DNA of 56,124 nucleotides, taken from positions 1 through 56,124 of the IMG/VR virus record IMGVR_UViG_3300010399_000044. One strand, given 5' to 3'. The translations under genes and the position numbers were made by a program. Each line of letters starts with the position of its first letter. Within the stretch, counting starts at the first letter, position 1. Shown here one piece after another: positions 3,600 to 39,483 of this stretch. Under the pieces are notes generated by a model. The model was not told the origin of the DNA, ran no database searches, and was given only the letters and a program-made list of their open reading frames with translations. The stretch is from a virus. Lineage: Duplodnaviria > Caudoviricetes.

Positions 3600-3674
3600 G
3601 TGTGGTTAGCTCAGTCTGGTCAGAGCGCCTCTCTGATGAAGAGGAAGTCATCGGTTCAAATCCCTTACCACACA
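3600..3674 (+). tRNA. tRNA-Ile(GAT), weak T-stem
   Basis: GTGTGGT/ACCACAC; TAGCTCAG; CCTCT-CTGATGA-AGAGG; GGTTCAAATCC. Confidence 0.8.
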
Positions 3675-3675
3675 C

Positions 3676-3749
3676 GCCCCTCTAGTCCAATTGGCAGAGG
3701 CGCTCGGCTCAGACCCGAGATGATCGCAGTTCGAATCTGCGGAGGGGTA
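3676..3749 (+). tRNA. tRNA-Leu(CAG), short variable loop
   Basis: GCCCCTC/GAGGGGT; CTCGG-CTCAGAC-CCGAG; GTTCGAATC. Confidence 0.85.
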
Positions 3750-3769
3750 CAACCAACGATTGGAAGAGG

Positions 3770-3859
3770 ATGAATTTTCAAGACGGTGCCCATATTTGTT
3801 TGTGTGACAGTCCCCGCAACCCCAACTGCCAGAAGTGCGGGATGCCCTGCCACTGTTAG
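3770..3859 (+). CDS. Cys-rich microprotein, 29 aa (MNFQDGAHICLCDSPRNPNCQKCGMPCHC)
   Basis: purine-rich GGAAGAGG upstream; fills a tRNA spacer; 6 Cys. Confidence 0.6.
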   Translation: MNFQDGAHICLCDSPRNPNCQKCGMPCHC

Positions 3860-3865
3860 TACAAT

Positions 3866-3941
3866 CGCTCATTAGCTCAGTCCGGAGAGAGCACCAGGCT
3901 ACGAACCTGGGTTTGCGGAGGTTCAAATCCTTCATGGGCGG
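3866..3941 (+). tRNA. tRNA-Arg(ACG)
   Basis: CGCTCAT/ATGGGCG; CCAGG-CTACGAA-CCTGG; GGTTCAAATCC. Confidence 0.9.
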
Positions 3942-4027
3942 CATGACTTTAGTTGGCAGTAAACTCGGGGATGAGGAACTGTCTATGGTCCGGCGATGCC
4001 GTTCGCGGTGTATCGAGTGGCCTGTAA

Positions 4028-4099
4028 TCCAGCATAACTCAACGGCAGAGTTCCGACCTGTTAAGTCGGCGGTTCTTGGTTCGAATCCAAGTGTTGGAG
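4028..4099 (+). tRNA. tRNA-Asn(GTT)
   Basis: TCCAGCA/TGTTGGA; CCGAC-CTGTTAA-GTCGG; GGTTCGAATCC. Confidence 0.92.
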
Positions 4100-4101
4100 C
4101 A

Positions 4102-4178
4102 GGAGGGATGCCGAAGTGGACGAGGCACCGGTTTGTGAAACCGGTATCAGTGGGTTCGAGTCCCACCCCTACCGACCA
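4102..4178 (+). tRNA. tRNA-His(GTG), imperfect acceptor stem
   Basis: CCGGT-TTGTGAA-ACCGG; GTGGG-TTCGAGT-CCCAC; acceptor GGAGGG/CCCTACC has a bulge. Confidence 0.75.
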
Positions 4179-4193
4179 CGTCAAGGAGGATAG

Positions 4194-4265
4194 ATGAAGT
4201 ACGAAGTATGCATGGGTGGCTGTGGTGGTACGACACAGACCTGTACGTGTGAAGGAAAGCGATAA
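4194..4265 (+). CDS. Cys-rich microprotein, 23 aa (MKYEVCMGGCGGTTQTCTCEGKR)
   Basis: perfect AAGGAGG RBS; 4 Cys. Confidence 0.65.
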   Translation: MKYEVCMGGCGGTTQTCTCEGKR

Positions 4266-4267
4266 GC

Positions 4268-4348
4268 ATGGCAGACCCAGCTTGCCCGAGGTGTCACGGT
4301 ACCGGCTTCTTTTGGATGCTGGGCTCGTGGCGTCCATGTGGGTGTTAA
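4268..4348 (+). CDS. Cys-rich microprotein, 26 aa (MADPACPRCHGTGFFWMLGSWRPCGC)
   Basis: starts 2 nt after the previous stop; GAAGGAAAG upstream; CxxCxGxG...CGC. Confidence 0.65.
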   Translation: MADPACPRCHGTGFFWMLGSWRPCGC

Positions 4349-4355
4349 TCCCAAC

Positions 4356-4431
4356 CGTCCATTAGCTCAAGTGGTAGAGCAGGAGCTTCTTAAGCTCTCG
4401 GTTCCAGGTTCAAGTCCTGGATGGATGACCA
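4356..4431 (+). tRNA. tRNA-Lys(CTT)
   Basis: CGTCCAT/ATGGATG-A-CCA; GGAGC-TTCTTAA-GCTCT; GGTTCAAGTCC. Confidence 0.92.
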
Positions 4432-4499
4432 CACAGCACGGTGCTGTTACCAGCCGGAACGTTTGATTCCGGGGGTCCGTGTGCGAGGAATACAGGCAA

Positions 4500-4574
4500 T
4501 GCTGATTGGTGTAACTGGCAACACGGGTGGCTCTGAACCACCTGTTCTAGGTTCGAATCCTAGGTCGGCAGCCA
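4500..4574 (+). tRNA. tRNA-Gln(CTG)
   Basis: TGCTGAT/GTCGGCA-G-CCA; GGTGG-CTCTGAA-CCACC; GGTTCGAATCC. Confidence 0.92.
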
Positions 4575-4575
4575 A

Positions 4576-4651
4576 GGGGACATAGTTTAGGTGAGCAAAA
4601 CAGCGGTCTCCAAAACCGCAGTGCGAGGTGCAAGCCCTCGTGGCCCCGCCA
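4576..4651 (+). tRNA. tRNA-Trp(CCA)
   Basis: GCGGT-CTCCAAA-ACCGC; CGAGG-TGCAAGC-CCTCG; encoded CCA end. Confidence 0.85.
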
Positions 4652-4652
4652 A

Positions 4653-4726
4653 GCCGTTGTAGCTCAATATGGTAGAGCACCCGCCTTGTAAGCGGGTGGT
4701 TCGGGGTTCAAGTCCTCGTTGCGGCT
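4653..4726 (+). tRNA. tRNA-Thr(TGT)
   Basis: TAGCTCAA..GGTAGAGC; CCCGC-CTTGTAA-GCGGG; GGTTCAAGTCC. Confidence 0.88.
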
Positions 4727-4785
4727 CTTGTTCAGAAAAACCTCGTGTTCAAGTTTTCTGAACAGCACCACAAAATGAACACGCT

Positions 4786-4857
4786 GTGGGTGTAGCTCAG
4801 GGGTAGAGTGCCTCATTTGGGATGAGGAAGTCGTGGGTTCGAAACCCGCCTCCCGCA
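4786..4857 (+). tRNA. tRNA-Pro(TGG)
   Basis: TAGCTCAG..GGTAGAG; CCTCA-TTTGGGA-TGAGG; GGTTCGAAACC. Confidence 0.88.
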
Positions 4858-4880
4858 CGTTTGACAAGGGGGTGATGTAA

Positions 4881-22610: not shown

Positions 22611-22829
22611 ATGTGGACCGCACAGTACTGGAAGGCCTTGTTCGAAGAGGCCGTGGTTGGATTTGCCGGTGGTGTTCTGAGTGTTACCGGTTTGGATGCC
22701 GTGGATGTCCTTAACCTGGACTTCAAGGCTGCGCTGGGCGTAGGCCTGGGTGGAGCCCTGGTGGTTGTCCTGAAGGGCCTTGGTCTGAAGAACGTAGGCG
22801 CACCGCAGAGCCCAAGTATCGTGAAGTAA
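22611..22829 (+). CDS. holin (r1t-like)
   Basis: MWT..YWKA..E.AV..FA, two TM segments, PSIV C-terminus. Confidence 0.75.
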   Translation: MWTAQYWKALFEEAVVGFAGGVLSVTGLDAVDVLNLDFKAALGVGLGGALVVVLKGLGLKNVGAPQSPSIVK

Positions 22830-22840
22830 GTCTAGAACGC

Positions 22841-22878
22841 AAAAAAGCCCCCACCTCATCGAGGTGGGGGCTTTTCTT
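22841..22878. terminator. bidirectional intrinsic terminator between the two arms
   Basis: AAAAAAGCCCCCACCTC-ATC-GAGGTGGGGGCTTTT. Confidence 0.92.
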
Positions 22879-22885
22879 GTTTAGA

Positions 22886-22951
22886 TCACCACTGGTTGCA
22901 CCAGCATCCGTCCTTGCAACCGCATTCGGAACAACCGCCTGTGTTATTCAA
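22886..22951 (-). CDS. Cys-rich microprotein, 21 aa (MNNTGGCSECGCKDGCWCNQW)
   Basis: TTG start overlapping the upstream ORF end; 5 Cys. Confidence 0.5.
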   Translation of the reverse strand: MNNTGGCSECGCKDGCWCNQW

Positions 22952-23027
22952 GGTCGAAGTCACCGCTCAGAATCTCGATGTAATCCTCAAGGTCGAGATC
23001 ATCGTCTACACCTTCTGGATCAGCCAT
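22944..23027 (-). CDS. acidic microprotein, 27 aa (MADPEGVDDDLDLEDYIEILSGDFDLE)
   Basis: 8-nt overlap with upstream ORF; GAGGA RBS. Confidence 0.65.
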   Translation of the reverse strand: MADPEGVDDDLDLEDYIEILSGDFDLE

Positions 23028-23124
23028 CTTCAGGGTCCTCATCGGATTCCTCTTCCATCTGCTTCCACAGCTCGTCAAGCTGCTCGTCGGAGAACTCATC
23101 ACCGTTGGCACTGTGCCTACCCAT
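23020..23124 (-). CDS. acidic microprotein, 34 aa (MGRHSANGDEFSDEQLDELWKQMEEESDEDPEDG)
   Basis: GAGGAGGT RBS; 8-nt overlap. Confidence 0.7.
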   Translation of the reverse strand: MGRHSANGDEFSDEQLDELWKQMEEESDEDPEDG

Positions 23125-23215
23125 TGTCAACCTCCTCTCCGTACTCTGCGTCCAGGGCAGTGGAGATGTCTTCCCTGCCTTCGGGGCTTAGCTCATCGTG
23201 GTCAGGTGTGGTCAT
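23117..23215 (-). CDS. acidic microprotein, 32 aa (MTTPDHDELSPEGREDISTALDAEYGEEVDNG)
   Basis: GAGGAGG RBS; overlap. Confidence 0.7.
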   Translation of the reverse strand: MTTPDHDELSPEGREDISTALDAEYGEEVDNG

Positions 23216-23300
23216 CTTGTTCCTCCTCGGGCCACTTGGGTTCTAGCTGGTTCAACTGGTCAATGAAGACCCTGAGGTCTTCGTCGTCGGGGTTAGTCAT
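23202..23300 (-). CDS. acidic microprotein, 32 aa (MTNPDDEDLRVFIDQLNQLEPKWPEEEQDDHT)
   Basis: ATGACTAA overlap with upstream ORF. Confidence 0.65.
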   Translation of the reverse strand: MTNPDDEDLRVFIDQLNQLEPKWPEEEQDDHT

Positions 23301-23400
23301 CTTCCCAGGGTCGGATGTAATTATCCGCCTCATCCCCTAAAATGTCCCTGATGTGTTCCATCTCGTCTTCGGACAACCTGTTACCGTTCGGGTCAGTCAT
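23293..23400 (-). CDS. acidic microprotein, 35 aa (MTDPNGNRLSEDEMEHIRDILGDEADNYIRPWEDD)
   Basis: ATGA overlap; GGATGGTAGGAG upstream. Confidence 0.7.
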   Translation of the reverse strand: MTDPNGNRLSEDEMEHIRDILGDEADNYIRPWEDD

Positions 23401-23480
23401 CTCCTACCATCCAACACATCATTGACAATCTCTTCGATTCGATCCAGGAGTTCTTCGGTTAAATCCTGCGGATCAGTCAT
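23397..23480 (-). CDS. acidic microprotein, 27 aa (MTDPQDLTEELLDRIEEIVNDVLDGRR)
   Basis: AAGGAAG RBS; ATGACTGA overlap. Confidence 0.7.
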   Translation of the reverse strand: MTDPQDLTEELLDRIEEIVNDVLDGRR

Positions 23481-23571
23481 CGTCTTCCTTGTCCAGTTCC
23501 TGATGCAGCCTCTTCTGGATCTTCTCGACCAAGTCCTCCGGAGGAGGATCGTCGTCTTGTGGTTTGCTCAC
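23473..23571 (-). CDS. acidic microprotein, 32 aa (MSKPQDDDPPPEDLVEKIQKRLHQELDKEDDD)
   Basis: GTGA overlap; GAGGT RBS. Confidence 0.65.
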   Translation of the reverse strand: MSKPQDDDPPPEDLVEKIQKRLHQELDKEDDD

Positions 23572-23654
23572 TGTCCCCAACCTCTTCCTGTGCAATCGTC
23601 ACCGCATGAACTTGCGTCTCGACCACCGCAGTGGTCACACACGTACTCGCTCAC
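23568..23654 (-). CDS. Cys-rich microprotein, 28 aa (MSEYVCDHCGGRDASSCGDDCTGRGWGQ)
   Basis: GTG start inside the end of the upstream gene; CxxC..CxxxC. Confidence 0.55.
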   Translation of the reverse strand: MSEYVCDHCGGRDASSCGDDCTGRGWGQ

Positions 23655-23826
23655 TCAGGAGTTCCATTTCCAAGGCGGGCCAGCAATACACACTGAACCC
23701 GTCTTCCATCCTGAGGACAATCTGTCCTGTGTCCTCAATAGCGAGGAGAACCCCCGTGTAAGTCACGGGGGTTGGCTCATCGTCACTTAGTCGTACCCAC
23801 ACTTCTTGTCCTAGGTAAGACACCAT
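23635..23826 (-). CDS. small beta-barrel (Sm/SH3-like) protein
   Basis: YLGQEVWVRL....YTGVLLAIEDTGQIVL pattern. Confidence 0.55.
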   Translation of the reverse strand: MVSYLGQEVWVRLSDDEPTPVTYTGVLLAIEDTGQIVLRMEDGFSVYCWPALEMELLSERVRV

Positions 23827-23840
23827 ATCGTGGAATGGTG

Positions 23841-24263
23841 TCACCAAGGCCACCAGGACGGCTTCTTCCAGAAGCTCTTGCGGGTCTCCTCGTAGTGCGG
23901 GTTCTTGATCAGGCCGATCTCGTTCCGCCACGGGTCCAGGAAGGATGCCGTGACAAACCCTGTGTTTCCACGCGCAGTCTTCGGCTCCACCGCAATGGTG
24001 TTGGGCATGGTCTCGAACCGGAAGATGGCATCATCGATGTCGTTCACAGCCCAGTACGTGATAGCCCGAGGGGTCACACCAATAGGGGATCGATCCGTTC
24101 GGATACCAAACTCCGCAGAGTAGTCACCAAACCGGTACTCGATGTACCCCGGCACCCTGAAGTAGGGCTCCTGGTTGAACAGGACCGAGTAGAAATCCTC
24201 GGCGGCTGCCAGATCATCCACGAAGATGTTGAACGTGGCCATGCCACGGAACGGGTTAGGCAT
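23841..24263 (-). CDS. VOC/glyoxalase-bleomycin resistance family protein
   Basis: FVDDLAAAEDFY, YWAVNDID, ASFLDPWRNEIGL. Confidence 0.88.
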   Translation of the reverse strand: MPNPFRGMATFNIFVDDLAAAEDFYSVLFNQEPYFRVPGYIEYRFGDYSAEFGIRTDRSPIGVTPRAITYWAVNDIDDAIFRFETMPNTIAVEPKTARGNTGFVTASFLDPWRNEIGLIKNPHYEETRKSFWKKPSWWPW

Positions 24264-24486
24264 TCGGGGGCTCCTCGCCTGGCGGGACGTAATCCGGGAG
24301 GAGTTCGTACAGCTCAACCACAGACACCCTGAAGGGGTCTGCGATCGGAGCCTTGAAGAAGTGGAACTCGGACAACTCAGGCAGCGACTTCAACCAGACC
24401 ACAAGCTTGGCCTTCTGGTCGAAGATTGCCAGTGGCTTCTGTGGATAGGCGGTGTGAACCGTCCAGAGCCAGGTAACCGGGGGCAT
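24256..24486 (-). CDS. hypothetical protein
   Basis: ORF tiles the operon. Confidence 0.6.
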   Translation of the reverse strand: MPPVTWLWTVHTAYPQKPLAIFDQKAKLVVWLKSLPELSEFHFFKAPIADPFRVSVVELYELLPDYVPPGEEPPNA

Positions 24487-24744
24487 TTACTTGCACCTTT
24501 CGTCATGGGGGAACTGCTGGATGTTCCCCTCCTTGTAACCGTTCATGTAGACGTAGTAATCCCCGTTCCGGCAGAACAGGGTGACCGTTGACCCGTCGTC
24601 GGGCGTCTTGAACTTGTCCAGAACCCTGTCAGCATAGTTTACTGGGGCTGAGACGGCCTGTGGGGCCCTGAAAGGGGCTGACCCACACCCAACTAGGGCT
24701 AGGGCCATTGCGACGCTTAGAATCGATCTCAGGGCCTTGTTCAT
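24487..24744 (-). CDS. putative lipoprotein
   Basis: MNKALR + hydrophobic stretch + LVGC lipobox. Confidence 0.7.
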   Translation of the reverse strand: MNKALRSILSVAMALALVGCGSAPFRAPQAVSAPVNYADRVLDKFKTPDDGSTVTLFCRNGDYYVYMNGYKEGNIQQFPHDERCK

Positions 24745-25259
24745 TCCATGTCCTCCAACCAGTCGTAGACCTTCTTGTTCCAACGAGCATCAGCCAGGGC
24801 GTGGTGTTCCACGCCATCCTGAACCGGGACTGGATTCACATCGAGATAGGCCGAGATGTAATCCCAGTTCATGTGTAGAACCTGCTTCAGGTCCAGGGTG
24901 TACCAGGGAAGCTCATTCGGCATGTCGACCATGGTCCCGAACAACTGGGCCAGGATCACATGGTCGTAGTCGGCGTAGTATCCCCACAGCTCGTGGTCTT
25001 CCTTCGGGGAATCCTCAACCAGGAACTCTCGGACCAGGTCACCAATCTGTCGGTGATGCAGGACCACATCCGGTGCGTTGTAGAGCCAGGGGAACACGTT
25101 GTCCACCAGGAAATGGCCCTCAGGGACCATGACAGGGTCGAAGTCTGCGTTCTCCAGGTACAGTTCTCGACCATCCTCGGCAACAATACCGATGGAGATG
25201 AGCTGAATCGGGTTGTCGTAGCCATTCTCGTAGAACTCGGTGTCGTAGAAGAACTTCAC
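24741..25259 (-). CDS. DEDDh 3'-5' exoribonuclease (RNase AS/Rv2179c-like)
   Basis: FFYDTEF, LISIGIVAEDGRE, WGYYADYDHV, HHALADARWN. Confidence 0.9.
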   Translation of the reverse strand: MKFFYDTEFYENGYDNPIQLISIGIVAEDGRELYLENADFDPVMVPEGHFLVDNVFPWLYNAPDVVLHHRQIGDLVREFLVEDSPKEDHELWGYYADYDHVILAQLFGTMVDMPNELPWYTLDLKQVLHMNWDYISAYLDVNPVPVQDGVEHHALADARWNKKVYDWLEDME

Positions 25260-26209: not shown

Positions 26210-26355
26210 TGCACCAAACTCCTTACCAGTTCATCACGAAGCGCCTCGGCTGCCCACATGGGGATAACCAAATTCTCCCGACTCCAGGTTTCCGCGATGA
26301 TACGAGCCTCCTTGGGGATGCTGATCCATACTTCATCACCACGGATCTCCATCAT
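26206..26355 (-). CDS. hypothetical protein, 49 aa
   Basis: ATGA and GTGA overlaps at both ends. Confidence 0.55.
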   Translation of the reverse strand: MMEIRGDEVWISIPKEARIIAETWSRENLVIPMWAAEALRDELVRSLVQ

Positions 26356-26909
26356 AGCTGCCCCTTGTGGATCTCGTCGTTCTCAAGCAGGATCTTGTAC
26401 TTCTGCTGGGTCTCCTTGTGCCAGACGATGATGCCCTCAGCCTTGGCATCCCACTTAGCTCCGGGAACATAGGAGTGGAAGGCCATCAGGTTGTTGATGA
26501 CCGTAGGAATGGTGTTGTAATCCGCCTGGCCCTCGAAGAGGACTGGGACAAACTCCACCAGACCCGAGTTCTCGATGCGCTCCTTCTCCTCGTCATTGAA
26601 CTTCCACGGAGAGAAGTGGGCAAACCGCTTGCCCTCAATGCCAAGCGGGTTCTTCTGGATACCCTCACCGAACCACTCACCGAAGTGAACCCCGTAGCCC
26701 AGCACATCTGTCAGAGCACCAGCATTGTCGTAGGCCCACCTTGCGAAACCGAAGTTGTCGTCGTCGGGGGTGATCATCCTCTTTCGAGACTGGGTCGTGA
26801 GTTCACCATCCAGGATTCGGATGCACGCATTCGTGCCATCGATCTTCTCGCTGATGGTCAGGTACTTGTGGAACCTGGGCGTGCTGTCCCACTTGATGAA
26901 ATCAACCAT
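26352..26909 (-). CDS. RNA ligase (Rnl2-like adenylyltransferase domain)
   Basis: SEKIDGTN motif I, QSR, FGEW.G.GIQ, EGIIV. Confidence 0.88.
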   Translation of the reverse strand: MVDFIKWDSTPRFHKYLTISEKIDGTNACIRILDGELTTQSRKRMITPDDDNFGFARWAYDNAGALTDVLGYGVHFGEWFGEGIQKNPLGIEGKRFAHFSPWKFNDEEKERIENSGLVEFVPVLFEGQADYNTIPTVINNLMAFHSYVPGAKWDAKAEGIIVWHKETQQKYKILLENDEIHKGQL

Positions 26910-31378: not shown

Positions 31379-31453
31379 TTACTTCTTGGTGGGTTCTACA
31401 TGTACGTGCTTCTTGTGGAACTCTTCTTCGGTCTGTACTACGGGGTCTGCCAC
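31379..31453 (-). CDS. microprotein, 24 aa (MADPVVQTEEEFHKKHVHVEPTKK)
   Basis: TAGTG overlap; fills the gap between neighbours. Confidence 0.4.
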   Translation of the reverse strand: MADPVVQTEEEFHKKHVHVEPTKK

Positions 31454-31998
31454 TACAAATCCCCGACCTTTCTAGCACCTGGACCCTGGTGGTCCGTGTA
31501 CCTATTGCTGGTGTTGCAGCGATTCATCAACACCGTGAGAGCATCGACAGCCCTGGTTACAGCCTTGCGGTCTTCCTGCTCGTTACCGTAAACGAATCTG
31601 TCTACGATGGTATCGAACATCGACTTATTCTTGGCCTTCAGCATCAGCATCCCGGTAGACAAGTCGGTAGACTCACTCAGGGTTGCCGCTTCTCTGTTGG
31701 TGATTAGACCCATTTCAAGCAGGGTTCGGACCTCGTCCGTGCCGTACTCGTATTGACCCGAGAAGAACTCGTAGACATCGGCTGCCATAGCCGCACGTTG
31801 CCCTGCAATCCTACGAAGCTGCGTGGAAGGATCTTCTTCCTTGAGCAGCTTGACGTATTCAGGCTTGTTCTCAAGCAGGTAGACCCAGACGTCCTGCCTG
31901 ATGTCCTCCCAATCCAGTGTTGGCCACTTACGACCAGCACCCCTGGCTGCCTGCTCTACTGCGTCGTAGAACTCCTTTGGAATGTGTTCGTGCATCAT
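31453..31998 (-). CDS. sigma-70-like / helix-turn-helix DNA-binding protein
   Basis: EDIRQDVWV region-2-like; Y.Y.TDEVR.LL; RAVDALT..MN; GPG.RK. Confidence 0.7.
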   Translation of the reverse strand: MMHEHIPKEFYDAVEQAARGAGRKWPTLDWEDIRQDVWVYLLENKPEYVKLLKEEDPSTQLRRIAGQRAAMAADVYEFFSGQYEYGTDEVRTLLEMGLITNREAATLSESTDLSTGMLMLKAKNKSMFDTIVDRFVYGNEQEDRKAVTRAVDALTVLMNRCNTSNRYTDHQGPGARKVGDL

Positions 31999-34361: not shown

Positions 34362-34540
34362 TCGAAATCCTCCGTGATGCCATTCACATCCTCCATCACA
34401 ACCCGAAGAATGCCGACACCCCTGGACACCGTAAGGGTCCAGGTGTGGTCGTAACCATCACCACGGGTGTAGTACCCCGAGGGGTGATCTTCGGAGAACC
34501 AGTCAGCAAGAACATTGAGAGCCTCGGTCGTGTCAGTCAT
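34337..34540 (-). CDS. hypothetical protein
   Basis: tiling ORF. Confidence 0.6.
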   Translation of the reverse strand: MTDTTEALNVLADWFSEDHPSGYYTRGDGYDHTWTLTVSRGVGILRVVMEDVNGITEDFEWELNLRS

Positions 34541-34661
34541 CAGACTTCCTCTCGTTCATGACATCAGTCCAGTACCTGACTACTTCACATGGAGCACCCT
34601 GAAGACACGCTTCAGGGTCAGGGCAGTCACCACACAATGGCTGTGGGTCACTCGTCGTCAT
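34533..34661 (-). CDS. Cys-rich small protein (CGDCPDPEAC..G.PC)
   Basis: GAGGA RBS; tiling. Confidence 0.55.
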   Translation of the reverse strand: MTTSDPQPLCGDCPDPEACLQGAPCEVVRYWTDVMNERKSDD

Positions 34662-38553: not shown

Positions 38554-39483
38554 TTAGAAATCACCGTCTGCTACCTGAAGTACTGTCAACCCAATGGAAC
38601 GGTAAGCCGCAACAACCCTGTTGCGGTCGTCGTATGCCCGCTTGATGTTCCAGTTACCCCTGATGTGCTTGTCGAAGAGTTCCAGCTTCACGACCGCATC
38701 GTTGCGGGTGTCGCCTTCCGAACGCATGAATAGTCCTGCAATAGGAACCTTGACTTCCTGGTACAACCACTCCTCGGACACCCCGAAGAACTTGTGACTA
38801 CGACCAGACCCGAACACGATCTTGTTTCCGAGGTCGTAGTACTCGTGCCTCACGATGTCAATGATGGGGAGGTTGGGCTTGTCCAGGTGATACCTGGAGG
38901 TGTCGTACGGGCCTCTCACACCATCGTGGAGAGCCACAGTCCCATCGATGTCCACCAGCACCGCGTCTGGCAGGCTGGTGTCCGGAACGTACAACTCATG
39001 CTGTGGGATCGTGAACTTCCCCCGCACAGCAGGCTCAACCGGAGTCTTGCCTTGGAGTGGGGTGACGTAGCGCTGGAACATGTTCCGGATTACATCTTCC
39101 GGAACGGGGTGTTCGCGCTTGGAGTTCCTTTCCAAGCAGGTTTCCAGCGGAACCCAGGTGAAATCTACCTGGCACCACTCCACACCAAGACGCTCTGCGA
39201 TCAAGGCCAGAGGCCTACGGTACGCAGTCTTCAGGTTGCAGTCGTGAACAACAACCCGAAGGCCACGACTCAAAGCCTTGTCGATCATCGAGTGTTCCAG
39301 TGCCGTGATCTCGTTCTCCTGATCCGAGGTCAGACCCAGCTTGGTACCGTACAGGGTCAGCCTCAGGTCATCCCTGGAGATGGCCACAGCCTCACCAGGA
39401 GGAAGACTCGCTACGATCTCTCGTGCGAAGGTGGTCTTCCCAGAACCGGGAAGACCCACACAGATGTACAGCTCCCCGCTCAC
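38554..39483 (-). CDS. polynucleotide kinase/3'-phosphatase (T4 PseT-like)
   Basis: GLPGSGKTT, RDD.R, DIDGT HAD motif, SGR, DDR. Confidence 0.95.
   Translation of the reverse strand: MSGELYICVGLPGSGKTTFAREIVASLPPGEAVAISRDDLRLTLYGTKLGLTSDQENEITALEHSMIDKALSRGLRVVVHDCNLKTAYRRPLALIAERLGVEWCQVDFTWVPLETCLERNSKREHPVPEDVIRNMFQRYVTPLQGKTPVEPAVRGKFTIPQHELYVPDTSLPDAVLVDIDGTVALHDGVRGPYDTSRYHLDKPNLPIIDIVRHEYYDLGNKIVFGSGRSHKFFGVSEEWLYQEVKVPIAGLFMRSEGDTRNDAVVKLELFDKHIRGNWNIKRAYDDRNRVVAAYRSIGLTVLQVADGDF

Follow-up and report, generated by a model that had tools for sequence, protein, structure and literature searches.

Which genes, if any, does an uncultured soil phage carry in a stretch of 770 nucleotides (nt) for which gene prediction offers no credible open reading frame (ORF)? 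The question is raised by the IMG/VR record IMGVR_UViG_3300010399_000044 (Duplodnaviria; Caudoviricetes), a complete virus record of 56,124 base pairs (bp) with 55% G+C, which was analyzed as a whole and is called the window in the following. The region concerned (23654..22886, minus strand) forms the last 770 nt, and thereby the promoter-distal end, of a long leftward operon. Genes of 21–35 codons are routinely dropped by annotation, which is why this region was read as lacking a credible ORF. Its minus strand is tiled by nine ORFs of 21–35 codons, numbered P1 to P9 in minus-strand order, with overlaps of 4, 8, 4, 8, 14, 8, 8 and 8 nt in order. An earlier, sequence-only reading of the window had proposed nine such ORFs with overlaps of 4–14 nt, and all of them are present with the products that it gave. 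It had also called the chain hidden, a description that does not fit four of the nine (P4, P6, P7 and P8), as these already stand letter for letter, unnamed, in public predicted-protein sets. The best explanation overall is, in our view, a translationally coupled array of micro-gene cassettes whose products may act as acidic binders, to which we assign a probability of roughly 55%. The members of the chain are as follows.

P1, 23568..23654, minus strand: GTG start, 28 amino acids (aa), Cys-rich, MSEYVCDHCGGRDASSCGDDCTGRGWGQ; core
P2, 23473..23571, minus strand: GTG start, 32 aa, acidic; accessory, diverged among relatives
P3, 23397..23480, minus strand: 27 aa, acidic; accessory
P4, 23293..23400, minus strand: 35 aa, acidic, invariant start MTDPNGN; core
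P5, 23202..23300, minus strand: 32 aa, acidic, helix followed by a P-x-W-P motif; core
P6, 23117..23215, minus strand: 32 aa, acidic; accessory
P7, 23020..23124, minus strand: 34 aa, net charge -12, strong Shine-Dalgarno (SD) sequence; core
P8, 22944..23027, minus strand: 27 aa, acidic, DLxLxDYIxxLxGxF; core
P9, 22886..22951, minus strand: TTG start, weak SD, 21 aa, Cys-rich; accessory, least certain member

We compared this layout with chance expectation. None of 2000 dinucleotide shuffles of the region produced a chain of nine ORFs; the maximum was seven, reached in 2/2000. Scanning both strands of the whole window for chains of at least five short overlapping ORFs returned a single one, namely P1–P9. 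The 12-mer found at the junctions occurs at five sites in the window, four of them inside the chain, and none of 100 shuffles reached five. The lone site outside the chain (34530-34541, minus strand, one mismatch) is perhaps another ATGA-type junction of the same operon. At the DNA level, Tandem Repeats Finder detected no tandem array in the chain, and a scan of the whole window with hidden Markov models (HMMs) of the peptide families found no extra copies of any family beyond the chain.

Relatives were found by using two neighbouring genes as anchors, first a 69-aa gene upstream of the chain and then the holin downstream, which yielded six IMG/VR contigs and further metagenome contigs (loci L002 to L064). 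With the family HMMs the chain was recognized in 15 of 17 loci, and 13 related metagenomic phage records besides the window carry it. Across 11 loci, 13 peptide families were defined, and the ratio of non-synonymous to synonymous divergence (pN/pS) lies between 0.00 and 0.35 in the proposed frame for 13/13 families. The individual values in the proposed versus the two shifted frames are 0.26 vs 1.68 and 1.42 for P1, 0.31 vs 1.03 and 1.53 for P2, 0.27 vs 1.27 and 1.92 for P4, 0.35 vs 1.19 and 1.49 for P5, 0.29 vs 1.34 and 1.88 for P7, and 0.28 vs 1.75 and 1.44 for P8; P6 shows 0.24 in frame. In total, the proposed frame gives 0.29 and the shifted frames 1.36 and 1.62, sums which must be discounted somewhat, being taken over all pairs of related sequences in protein-guided alignments, so that they are non-independent and lean slightly to the proposed frame. 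Because of this protein guidance, mismatches were also counted in plain nucleotide alignments, which offset the lean: between the window and five relatives, codon positions 1, 2 and 3 carry 151, 114 and 328 mismatches, and 14, 11 and 62 in P4 alone (counts for P3 and P9 against loci without those units reflect misalignment and are to be disregarded).

Length differences follow the same pattern of preserved frames. Within P4–P8, the indels between the window and L002 measure 6, 6 and 3 nt, and the P8 indel in L055, L056 and the metagenome runs X3 and X5 measures 9 nt. The diverged P1/P2 junction and the P2–P3 stretch show gaps of 5, 19 and 59 nt between the window and L002/L003, with the sequence replaced rather than aligned, and the L004 alignment holds one 1-nt gap, the position of which was not mapped. 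Starts are conserved, the GTG of P2 being an ATG in the relatives. Between the window and the clade of L005 and L007, the chain peptides share 50–81% aa identity, which matches or surpasses the values of their neighbours: the exoribonuclease shares 51%, p150 (a protein of 150 aa) 28–44%, and 42% is seen for the tail protein of 888 aa. The sequence-only reading had suggested looking in related phages for synonymous-biased divergence and for frames and stop/start overlaps that hold or break; the relatives keep frames, starts and overlaps, and their divergence is biased to synonymous sites.

From these comparisons we consider it very probable that each of the nine ORFs is a real protein-coding micro-gene with an initiation of its own. 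Some points count against this: the case is one of sequence comparison throughout, and SD pairing is weak at 5/9 starts, where it is no better than the local background. The earlier statement that most of the ORFs have a ribosome-binding site thus stands for P6 and P7 (strong, -11.6 and -12.7 kcal/mol) and for P2 and P4 (moderate, about -6.7 kcal/mol), and not for the remaining starts. The weakest member is P9, which has a TTG start and is known from only three near-identical records (the window, L055 and L056). Its core GGCSECGCKDGCWCNQW is identical in all three, its changes are 8 synonymous versus 2 non-synonymous, and 6/8 mismatches fall on third positions.

A counter-proposal is that the nine ORFs are not genes and tile the region by chance. 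The stretch would then be an untranslated 3' tail, the remains of a longer gene that has decayed, or the complement of a plus-strand gene (ORFs 22877-23191, 22896-23246 and 23353-23790). The shortness of the ORFs, the weak SD sequences, the long ORFs on the opposite strand and the lack of any family match would all suit it. We nevertheless regard it as very improbable, given the outcome of the shuffles, a purifying selection that follows each small frame, and the level of amino acid identity that the chain keeps across a clade with 42% identical tail proteins. Selection tracks a frame that changes every 80–100 nt, and whole units are inserted or deleted as 80 and 85 nt, a length that breaks any long antisense ORF; the long ORFs of the opposite strand are therefore not the conserved feature. 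A long antisense gene on the plus strand was accordingly rejected as a candidate.

Searching 1.84 billion representative proteins with the P4 profile gave only three true clusters, all of 35 aa, one of which is a distant form from a single 49,980-bp contig. A DNA pattern for MTDPNGN matched 41 stretches and was true only in six contigs that were already known. Among isolated phage genomes, tblastn with P4, P7 and P1 returned chance-level matches (E ≥4) or none, and neither near nor distant DNA searches gave a match over the chain.

The sequence-only reading had asked whether such arrays come back at this position in differing copy number, and they do. Seven architectures were seen (Z2, Z3, Z6 and Px are units of the relatives):

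Window: P1-P2-P3-P4-P5-P6-P7-P8-P9
L055 and L056: window order minus P3
L002/L003 and L054: window order minus P3 and P9
L004: window order minus P3, P6 and P9
L005/L006/L058: P1-Z2-(unassigned acidic 30-mer)-P4-P5-Z6-P7-Z3-P8
L007/L008/L060-62: P1-Z2-P3-P4-Px-P5-Z6-P7-Z3-DUF3310-P8
L057 (fragment): P4-P5-P7-P6'-P8, with P6 and P7 swapped

The core consists of P1, P4, P5, P7 and P8: P1 and P4 are present in 10/10 arrays in which that part is sequenced, and P5, P7 and P8 in 11/11 loci. P2 and P6 occur in six loci each. In all relatives without P9, no other gene stands between P8 and the terminator. Two losses can be read at the nucleotide level. P3 is an exact 80-nt unit, missing in L002, L004, L054, L055 and L056 as an 80-nt gap flanked by the repeat GATGACTGA; where it is present, in the window and in arrays of the L007 type, its identity is 63%. 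It is also polymorphic in soil-metagenome runs, contigs of X3 and X5 skipping it and X2 keeping it. L004 has lost P6 through a deletion of 85 nt flanked by GAGGAGG repeats, which fused the head of P5 in frame to the tail of P6 and the start of P7. Whole units are thus probably gained, lost and reordered at short junction repeats, as judged from these alignments. Because the exchange takes place inside the short repeats of the junctions and SD sites (GATGACTGA, GAGGAGG), all frames and overlaps that remain stay intact.

Some further arrangements lie at the margin of this comparison. A 250-nt wastewater contig from run X11 (labelled RNA-Seq, probably DNA) aligns to 23280-23480, carrying P4 and P3 with 23 differences and then Z2-like sequence, which may point to an additional order of units (Z2-P3-P4) in a different habitat. 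The gene between Z3 and P8 in L007, L008 and L062 encodes a 74-aa DUF3310-like protein (PHROG 5839, E 6e-19; its Pfam score of 22.4 bits stays slightly below the threshold of 24). Upstream of the chain, on the minus strand of L005 (5300-5700) and L007 (5270-5650), there are three more Cys-rich ORFs of 35–55 aa, for example with WTCxxCG...H...C, so that the micro-gene zone is longer in this clade and rich in probable zinc-binding mini-proteins.

How would such a chain be translated? Across 11 loci, 71 of 76 junctions overlap, 37 by 8 nt, 13 by 4, 9 by 1, 8 by 14, 3 by 11 and 1 by 32, although the loci are related and the 76 junctions are not independent. Along P1–P9, the stop of each unit falls within the start that follows or right beside it, the 8-nt form ATGNNTGA/TAA being the most frequent, and the codons GAG, GAA and GGA of each acidic tail may double as the purine-rich SD of the following unit. 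With the stop within or next to the following start, ribosomes would most likely re-initiate on the next peptide, and translational coupling along the chain by termination-reinitiation appears fairly likely. Uniform junctions, each needing a +1 shift just before the stop, could also be taken to mean that repeated programmed +1 frameshifting joins the units into one long acidic protein. The pre-stop codon (GAC, GGC and others), however, is predicted not to re-pair in the +1 frame, each unit keeps its own ATG, some junctions in L005 and L057 are one-base TGATG or TAATG overlaps or a 2-nt gap, and units are freely lost and reordered; the chance that frameshifting explains the chain is practically negligible.

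With coupling by re-initiation as the preferred reading, we asked what the products have in common. The seven peptides P2–P8 are extremely acidic, with net charges of -6 to -12 and 33–44% aspartate plus glutamate (D+E); the earlier counts of 12/27 for P8 and 14/34 for P7 are correct, as is the M-(S/T/A)-x-P start in six of the seven. Their description as seven related peptides was examined by profile-profile comparison (hhalign) with column-shuffle and reversed-profile controls. P4–P6 reached 87%, and 45% without the first four columns, P4–P7 36–50% and Z6–P7 76–79%. Once the shared start was removed, P5–P8 fell from 38% to 14%, P3–P4 from 23% to 4% and P2–P3 from 15% to 2%. For 15/36 pairs, at least one of 20 column shuffles scored as high as the real profiles, and among the remaining 21 pairs several did no better than the reversed-profile control. 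The family claim is therefore supported only in part, by the profiles of P4–P6, P4–P7 and Z6–P7: P4, P6 and P7 look related, P6 being a probable paralogue of P4; P2, P3, P5 and P8 do not appear clearly related without the shared start.

This start is itself partly a product of the overlap, as stop and start bases are common to both ORFs. The 8-nt overlap ATGACTGA/TAA imposes part of the M-T-D/N start and of the D-D end: within ATGACTGA, the upstream GAT-GAC-TGA and the downstream ATG-ACT-GAx are read from one set of bases. This constraint does not extend to the proline at position 4, and the full MTDPNGN of P4 persists at a different junction (TGATG in L005).

The structural predictions point to peptides of one helix. 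AlphaFold2 (AF2) places a single helix at residues 11–28 of P4 and 13–28 of P7, with predicted local distance difference test (pLDDT) values of 76 and 72. Conserved positions of the acidic peptides are hydrophobic or aromatic at helical spacing, and 18 columns of P4 and 11 of P8 are invariant. A shared amphipathic helix, as earlier claimed for all seven, was found in P2, P5 and P7, the only 3/7 to pass the hydrophobic-moment shuffle test at 5%; the segment 13–23 of P2 was matched by 15/1000 shuffles and the segment 9–19 of P5 by 13/1000. At the front of the chain, P1 has the arrangement CxxC-x7-C-x3-C followed by TGRxWG, and C6, C9, C17 and C21 are invariant in 6/6 aligned sequences, as are G, R and W. 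P1 is hence a probable metal knuckle, and both Cys-rich peptides of the window, P1 and P9, probably hold a metal ion. Among the units of the relatives, Z2 and Z3 are further candidates for zinc-knuckle or zinc-ribbon mini-proteins; Z3 contains two CxxCxGxG-like motifs, with sub-threshold matches to DnaJ_CXXCXGXG and zinc-ribbon families (14–16 bits).

Similarity searches added little to these properties. For the nine peptides, Pfam (E up to 10) and PHROGs gave nothing better than E 0.05 and no Ocr, ArdA or anti-defence family. The profiles of P1, P4 and P7 matched only short motifs in the PDB (the CxxC of C2H2 fingers and rubredoxin; an 'FSxEELDxLW' helix in RAP and in EF-hand proteins), and these matches were judged not to be homology; ESM Atlas returned no usable match for P4 and P7.

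Two readings of the products that differ from acidic binders can be weighed against these data. Firstly, the peptides might be precursors or signals, that is, RiPP-like (ribosomally synthesized and post-translationally modified peptides, with a Cys/Ser/Thr-rich P9 following an acidic 'leader-like' P8), secreted communication peptides or chelators of divalent cations. P9 is indeed a 21-mer rich in Cys, Gly and Ser right after P8, P7 and P8 show weak sub-threshold EF-hand matches (E 0.05–0.14, 13–14 bits against cut-offs of 27–37), and EF-hand proteins are among the weak PDB matches. However, the 20 neighbouring window proteins that were scanned include no modifying enzyme, transporter or signal peptide, P8 and P9 lie in different frames, and most relatives have no P9. 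The EF-hand matches cover a 'loop end plus exiting helix' only, far under the cut-off (PF25325 13.8 bits against 27, PF14658 13.1 against 37), and with a single helix predicted the peptides do not qualify as EF-hands. We consider this proposal quite improbable.

Secondly, the peptides could co-assemble into one acidic multi-helix 'split' protein, kept at fixed ratios by coupling and perhaps mimicking DNA as a whole. This would agree with coupled expression, with the constant core set and with single-helix peptides too small to fold alone. The acidic peptides would, on the other hand, be expected to repel each other, each being charged at -6 to -12, and a membership and order that vary freely in close relatives are hard to fit to an obligate complex. 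A complex prediction for P4, P5 and P7 (score 0.01, mark 0.32) carries no weight either way. Co-assembly seems improbable, if slightly less so than precursors or signals.

The preferred reading of the products, acidic one-helix binders accompanied by small metal knuckles, leads to a tentative proposal on function, which we hold to be the most likely one, though at clearly less than even chance: the peptides may act as small stoichiometric binders of host (possibly phage) proteins that handle nucleic acids, docking on their basic surfaces as putative inhibitors or decoys in takeover. The sequence-only reading had named Ocr and anti-CRISPRs as precedents. T7 Ocr comprises 116 aa per monomer and forms a dimer (PMC3439906, PMC7261183), and ArdA is a DNA-mimic anti-restriction protein (PMC2731889). 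These are likewise strongly acidic products of phages or mobile elements, which bind DNA-binding host proteins, and the chain peptides resemble them in charge only: they share no sequence similarity, are 3–6 times shorter, lack a folded body of about 100 aa and are predicted as a single helix, so that a lone chain peptide is too short to display the extended row of carboxylates by which such proteins imitate duplex DNA. To our knowledge, 27–35 aa is far below the size of any DNA mimic. The strict DNA-mimic idea does not fit single helices of 27–35 residues; the peptides may still work like a small acidic inhibitor.

A closer parallel in size is T4 Stp, a 26-residue phage peptide that acts on the host restriction/anticodon-nuclease complex and is paired with polynucleotide kinase and RNA ligase. 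It illustrates that so small a phage peptide can have a function, and the window encodes a polynucleotide kinase and an RNA ligase as well. Taken with the exoribonuclease and ten tRNA genes of the window, this set brings to mind the response of T4 to anticodon nucleases, in which Stp takes part, a likeness by description that serves as a lead only; Stp is a single gene, in contrast to the array found here. Clusters of anti-CRISPR and other anti-defence genes resemble the chain as tandem small genes whose membership varies in close relatives. In contrast to acr-aca loci, which usually include a helix-turn-helix (HTH) regulator, the chain is flanked by no HTH gene: it is followed by a terminator, the 69-aa gene upstream matches no Pfam family, and neither that gene nor the 158-aa gene, also upstream, gave a match to an HTH. 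It also has no similar Pfam or PHROG family, and its core is stably conserved rather than patchy.

Several observations weigh against the proposal. The AF2 confidence is moderate only, on alignments of 5–6 rows, and four of the seven acidic peptides did not pass the hydrophobic-moment test. Against a counter-defence role in particular, the core peptides are no more divergent than their housekeeping neighbours, unlike typical arms-race genes, and the Pfam, PHROG and PDB searches gave no homology to known inhibitors. The main rival to host binding, rather unlikely in our estimate, is that the core peptides serve the phage's own machinery, perhaps as small subunits or regulators of replication proteins, the sigma factor or the RNA-repair enzymes, with the accessory units host-directed or dispensable. 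The core is found in every array, is conserved like the neighbouring replication and repair genes, and stands in one operon with DNA polymerase I, primase, sigma factor, RNA ligase and exoribonuclease. Against this stand the two loci without a chain, L063 and L064, which belong to phages of the same build with a holin 61–64% identical and lack the whole chain, so that it is not essential to that build. Downstream of the holin, on the minus strand, these two loci carry other Cys-rich ORFs of 25–45 aa together with an ORF of 146–151 aa that is cytidine/dCMP deaminase-like by eye (HAE...C..C).

Combining host binding with cassette turnover, one may speculate further, at similarly low odds, that the array is a self-shuffling micro-protein library. 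A single junction (GATGACTGA, often after GAGGAGG) would serve as acidic tail, coupling device and microhomology at which cassettes of 80–100 nt are gained, lost and reordered in frame, by which a lytic soil phage could quickly vary acidic helices of 3–4 kDa that would each disable a different basic host protein (defence nucleases, nucleoid proteins). If true, no class of phage counter-defence effectors known so far would be smaller.

How far is such a chain new? That phages group small accessory genes whose stops and starts overlap is well established. Small phage genes are also the topic of a survey, 'Thousands of small, novel genes predicted in global phage genomes'. The early and accessory clusters of phages (host-takeover modules, hyperplastic regions, the right arms of actinobacteriophages) likewise consist of packed short genes of unknown function with start/stop overlaps and mosaic turnover on the non-structural arm, and phage small proteins are the subject of a review (PMC11323111). 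The chain differs from these clusters in that all nine genes have 21–35 codons, at or below the annotation floor, in that it is unbroken with a near-uniform 8-nt junction, and in the extreme acidity of seven products. In Rhodococcus phage Dinger, for example, annotated genes at the corresponding end of the operon go down to about 67 codons only. In a limited literature search, we found no description of an unbroken, selection-kept chain of nine genes of at most 35 codons with a near-uniform junction, cassette turnover and extreme acidity. The locus is thus a natural test case for the number of hidden phage micro-proteins, for coupling by 8-nt overlaps and for cassette evolution at microhomologies. 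If the peptides inhibit host proteins, they would represent minimal, helix-sized binding modules of about 3–4 kDa, useful as probes or leads, and would move the lower bound on the size of phage counter-defence proteins further down; if they serve the phage replication machinery, they would be unrecognised small subunits of it.

The surroundings of the chain hold the following features.

Holin, 22611..22829, plus strand: convergent, locus boundary; PF16945 48.4 bits (above cut-off), PHROG 443; anchor for finding relatives
Bidirectional intrinsic terminator, 22843..22875, no strand: 15-bp stem with an A-run/T-run on either side
69-aa gene upstream of the chain, 23635..23844, minus strand: PHROG 30799/18619, function unknown; GTGA overlap with the preceding glyoxalase-like gene
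Glyoxalase/bleomycin-resistance-fold gene, 23841-24317, minus strand: PF00903, 25.5 bits; two genes upstream of the chain

The terminator is a strong one and closes both the leftward operon that bears the chain and the rightward structural and lysis arm, and its position is kept in all relatives. The only Rfam matches of the region are sub-threshold and all lie on this hairpin; a promoter scan showed nothing beyond chance. With the 69-aa gene, the series of 'normal-sized' genes ahead of the chain comes to an end. Its last 20 nt are shared with P1, and it is 91% identical in L002. L004 lacks both this gene and the glyoxalase-like gene and has a lipoprotein-like ORF and a 76-aa ORF in their place.

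At the level of the genome, the rightward arm comprises structural genes, the tail protein and the r1t-type holin, and the terminase shares about 65% identity with its counterparts in Rhodococcus phages and Cluster A mycobacteriophages. A scan of genome contigs with the holin alignment found no relative and hence no clue to the host. The earlier remark that the chain sits where Cluster A-like phages normally carry an integrase or parAB agrees with Dinger, a relative by terminase, which has a serine integrase at the equivalent genome centre; no integrase, large serine recombinase or ParB was found in the window. The leftward operon encodes DNA polymerase I, primase, a ribonucleotide-reductase-like gene and a phage sigma factor (31453-31998, minus strand; PHROG 354, E 6.8e-30), which probably redirects the host RNA polymerase. 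It also contains the polynucleotide kinase (38554-39483, minus strand; PHROG 505, E 2.6e-82), the RNA ligase (26352-26909, minus strand; PF09414), the Rv2179c-like 3'-5' exoribonuclease (24741-25259, minus strand) and the glyoxalase-like gene. Together with ten tRNA genes (3600-4858, plus strand), the kinase, ligase and exoribonuclease look like an RNA/tRNA-repair and replacement kit directed against anticodon nucleases of the host.

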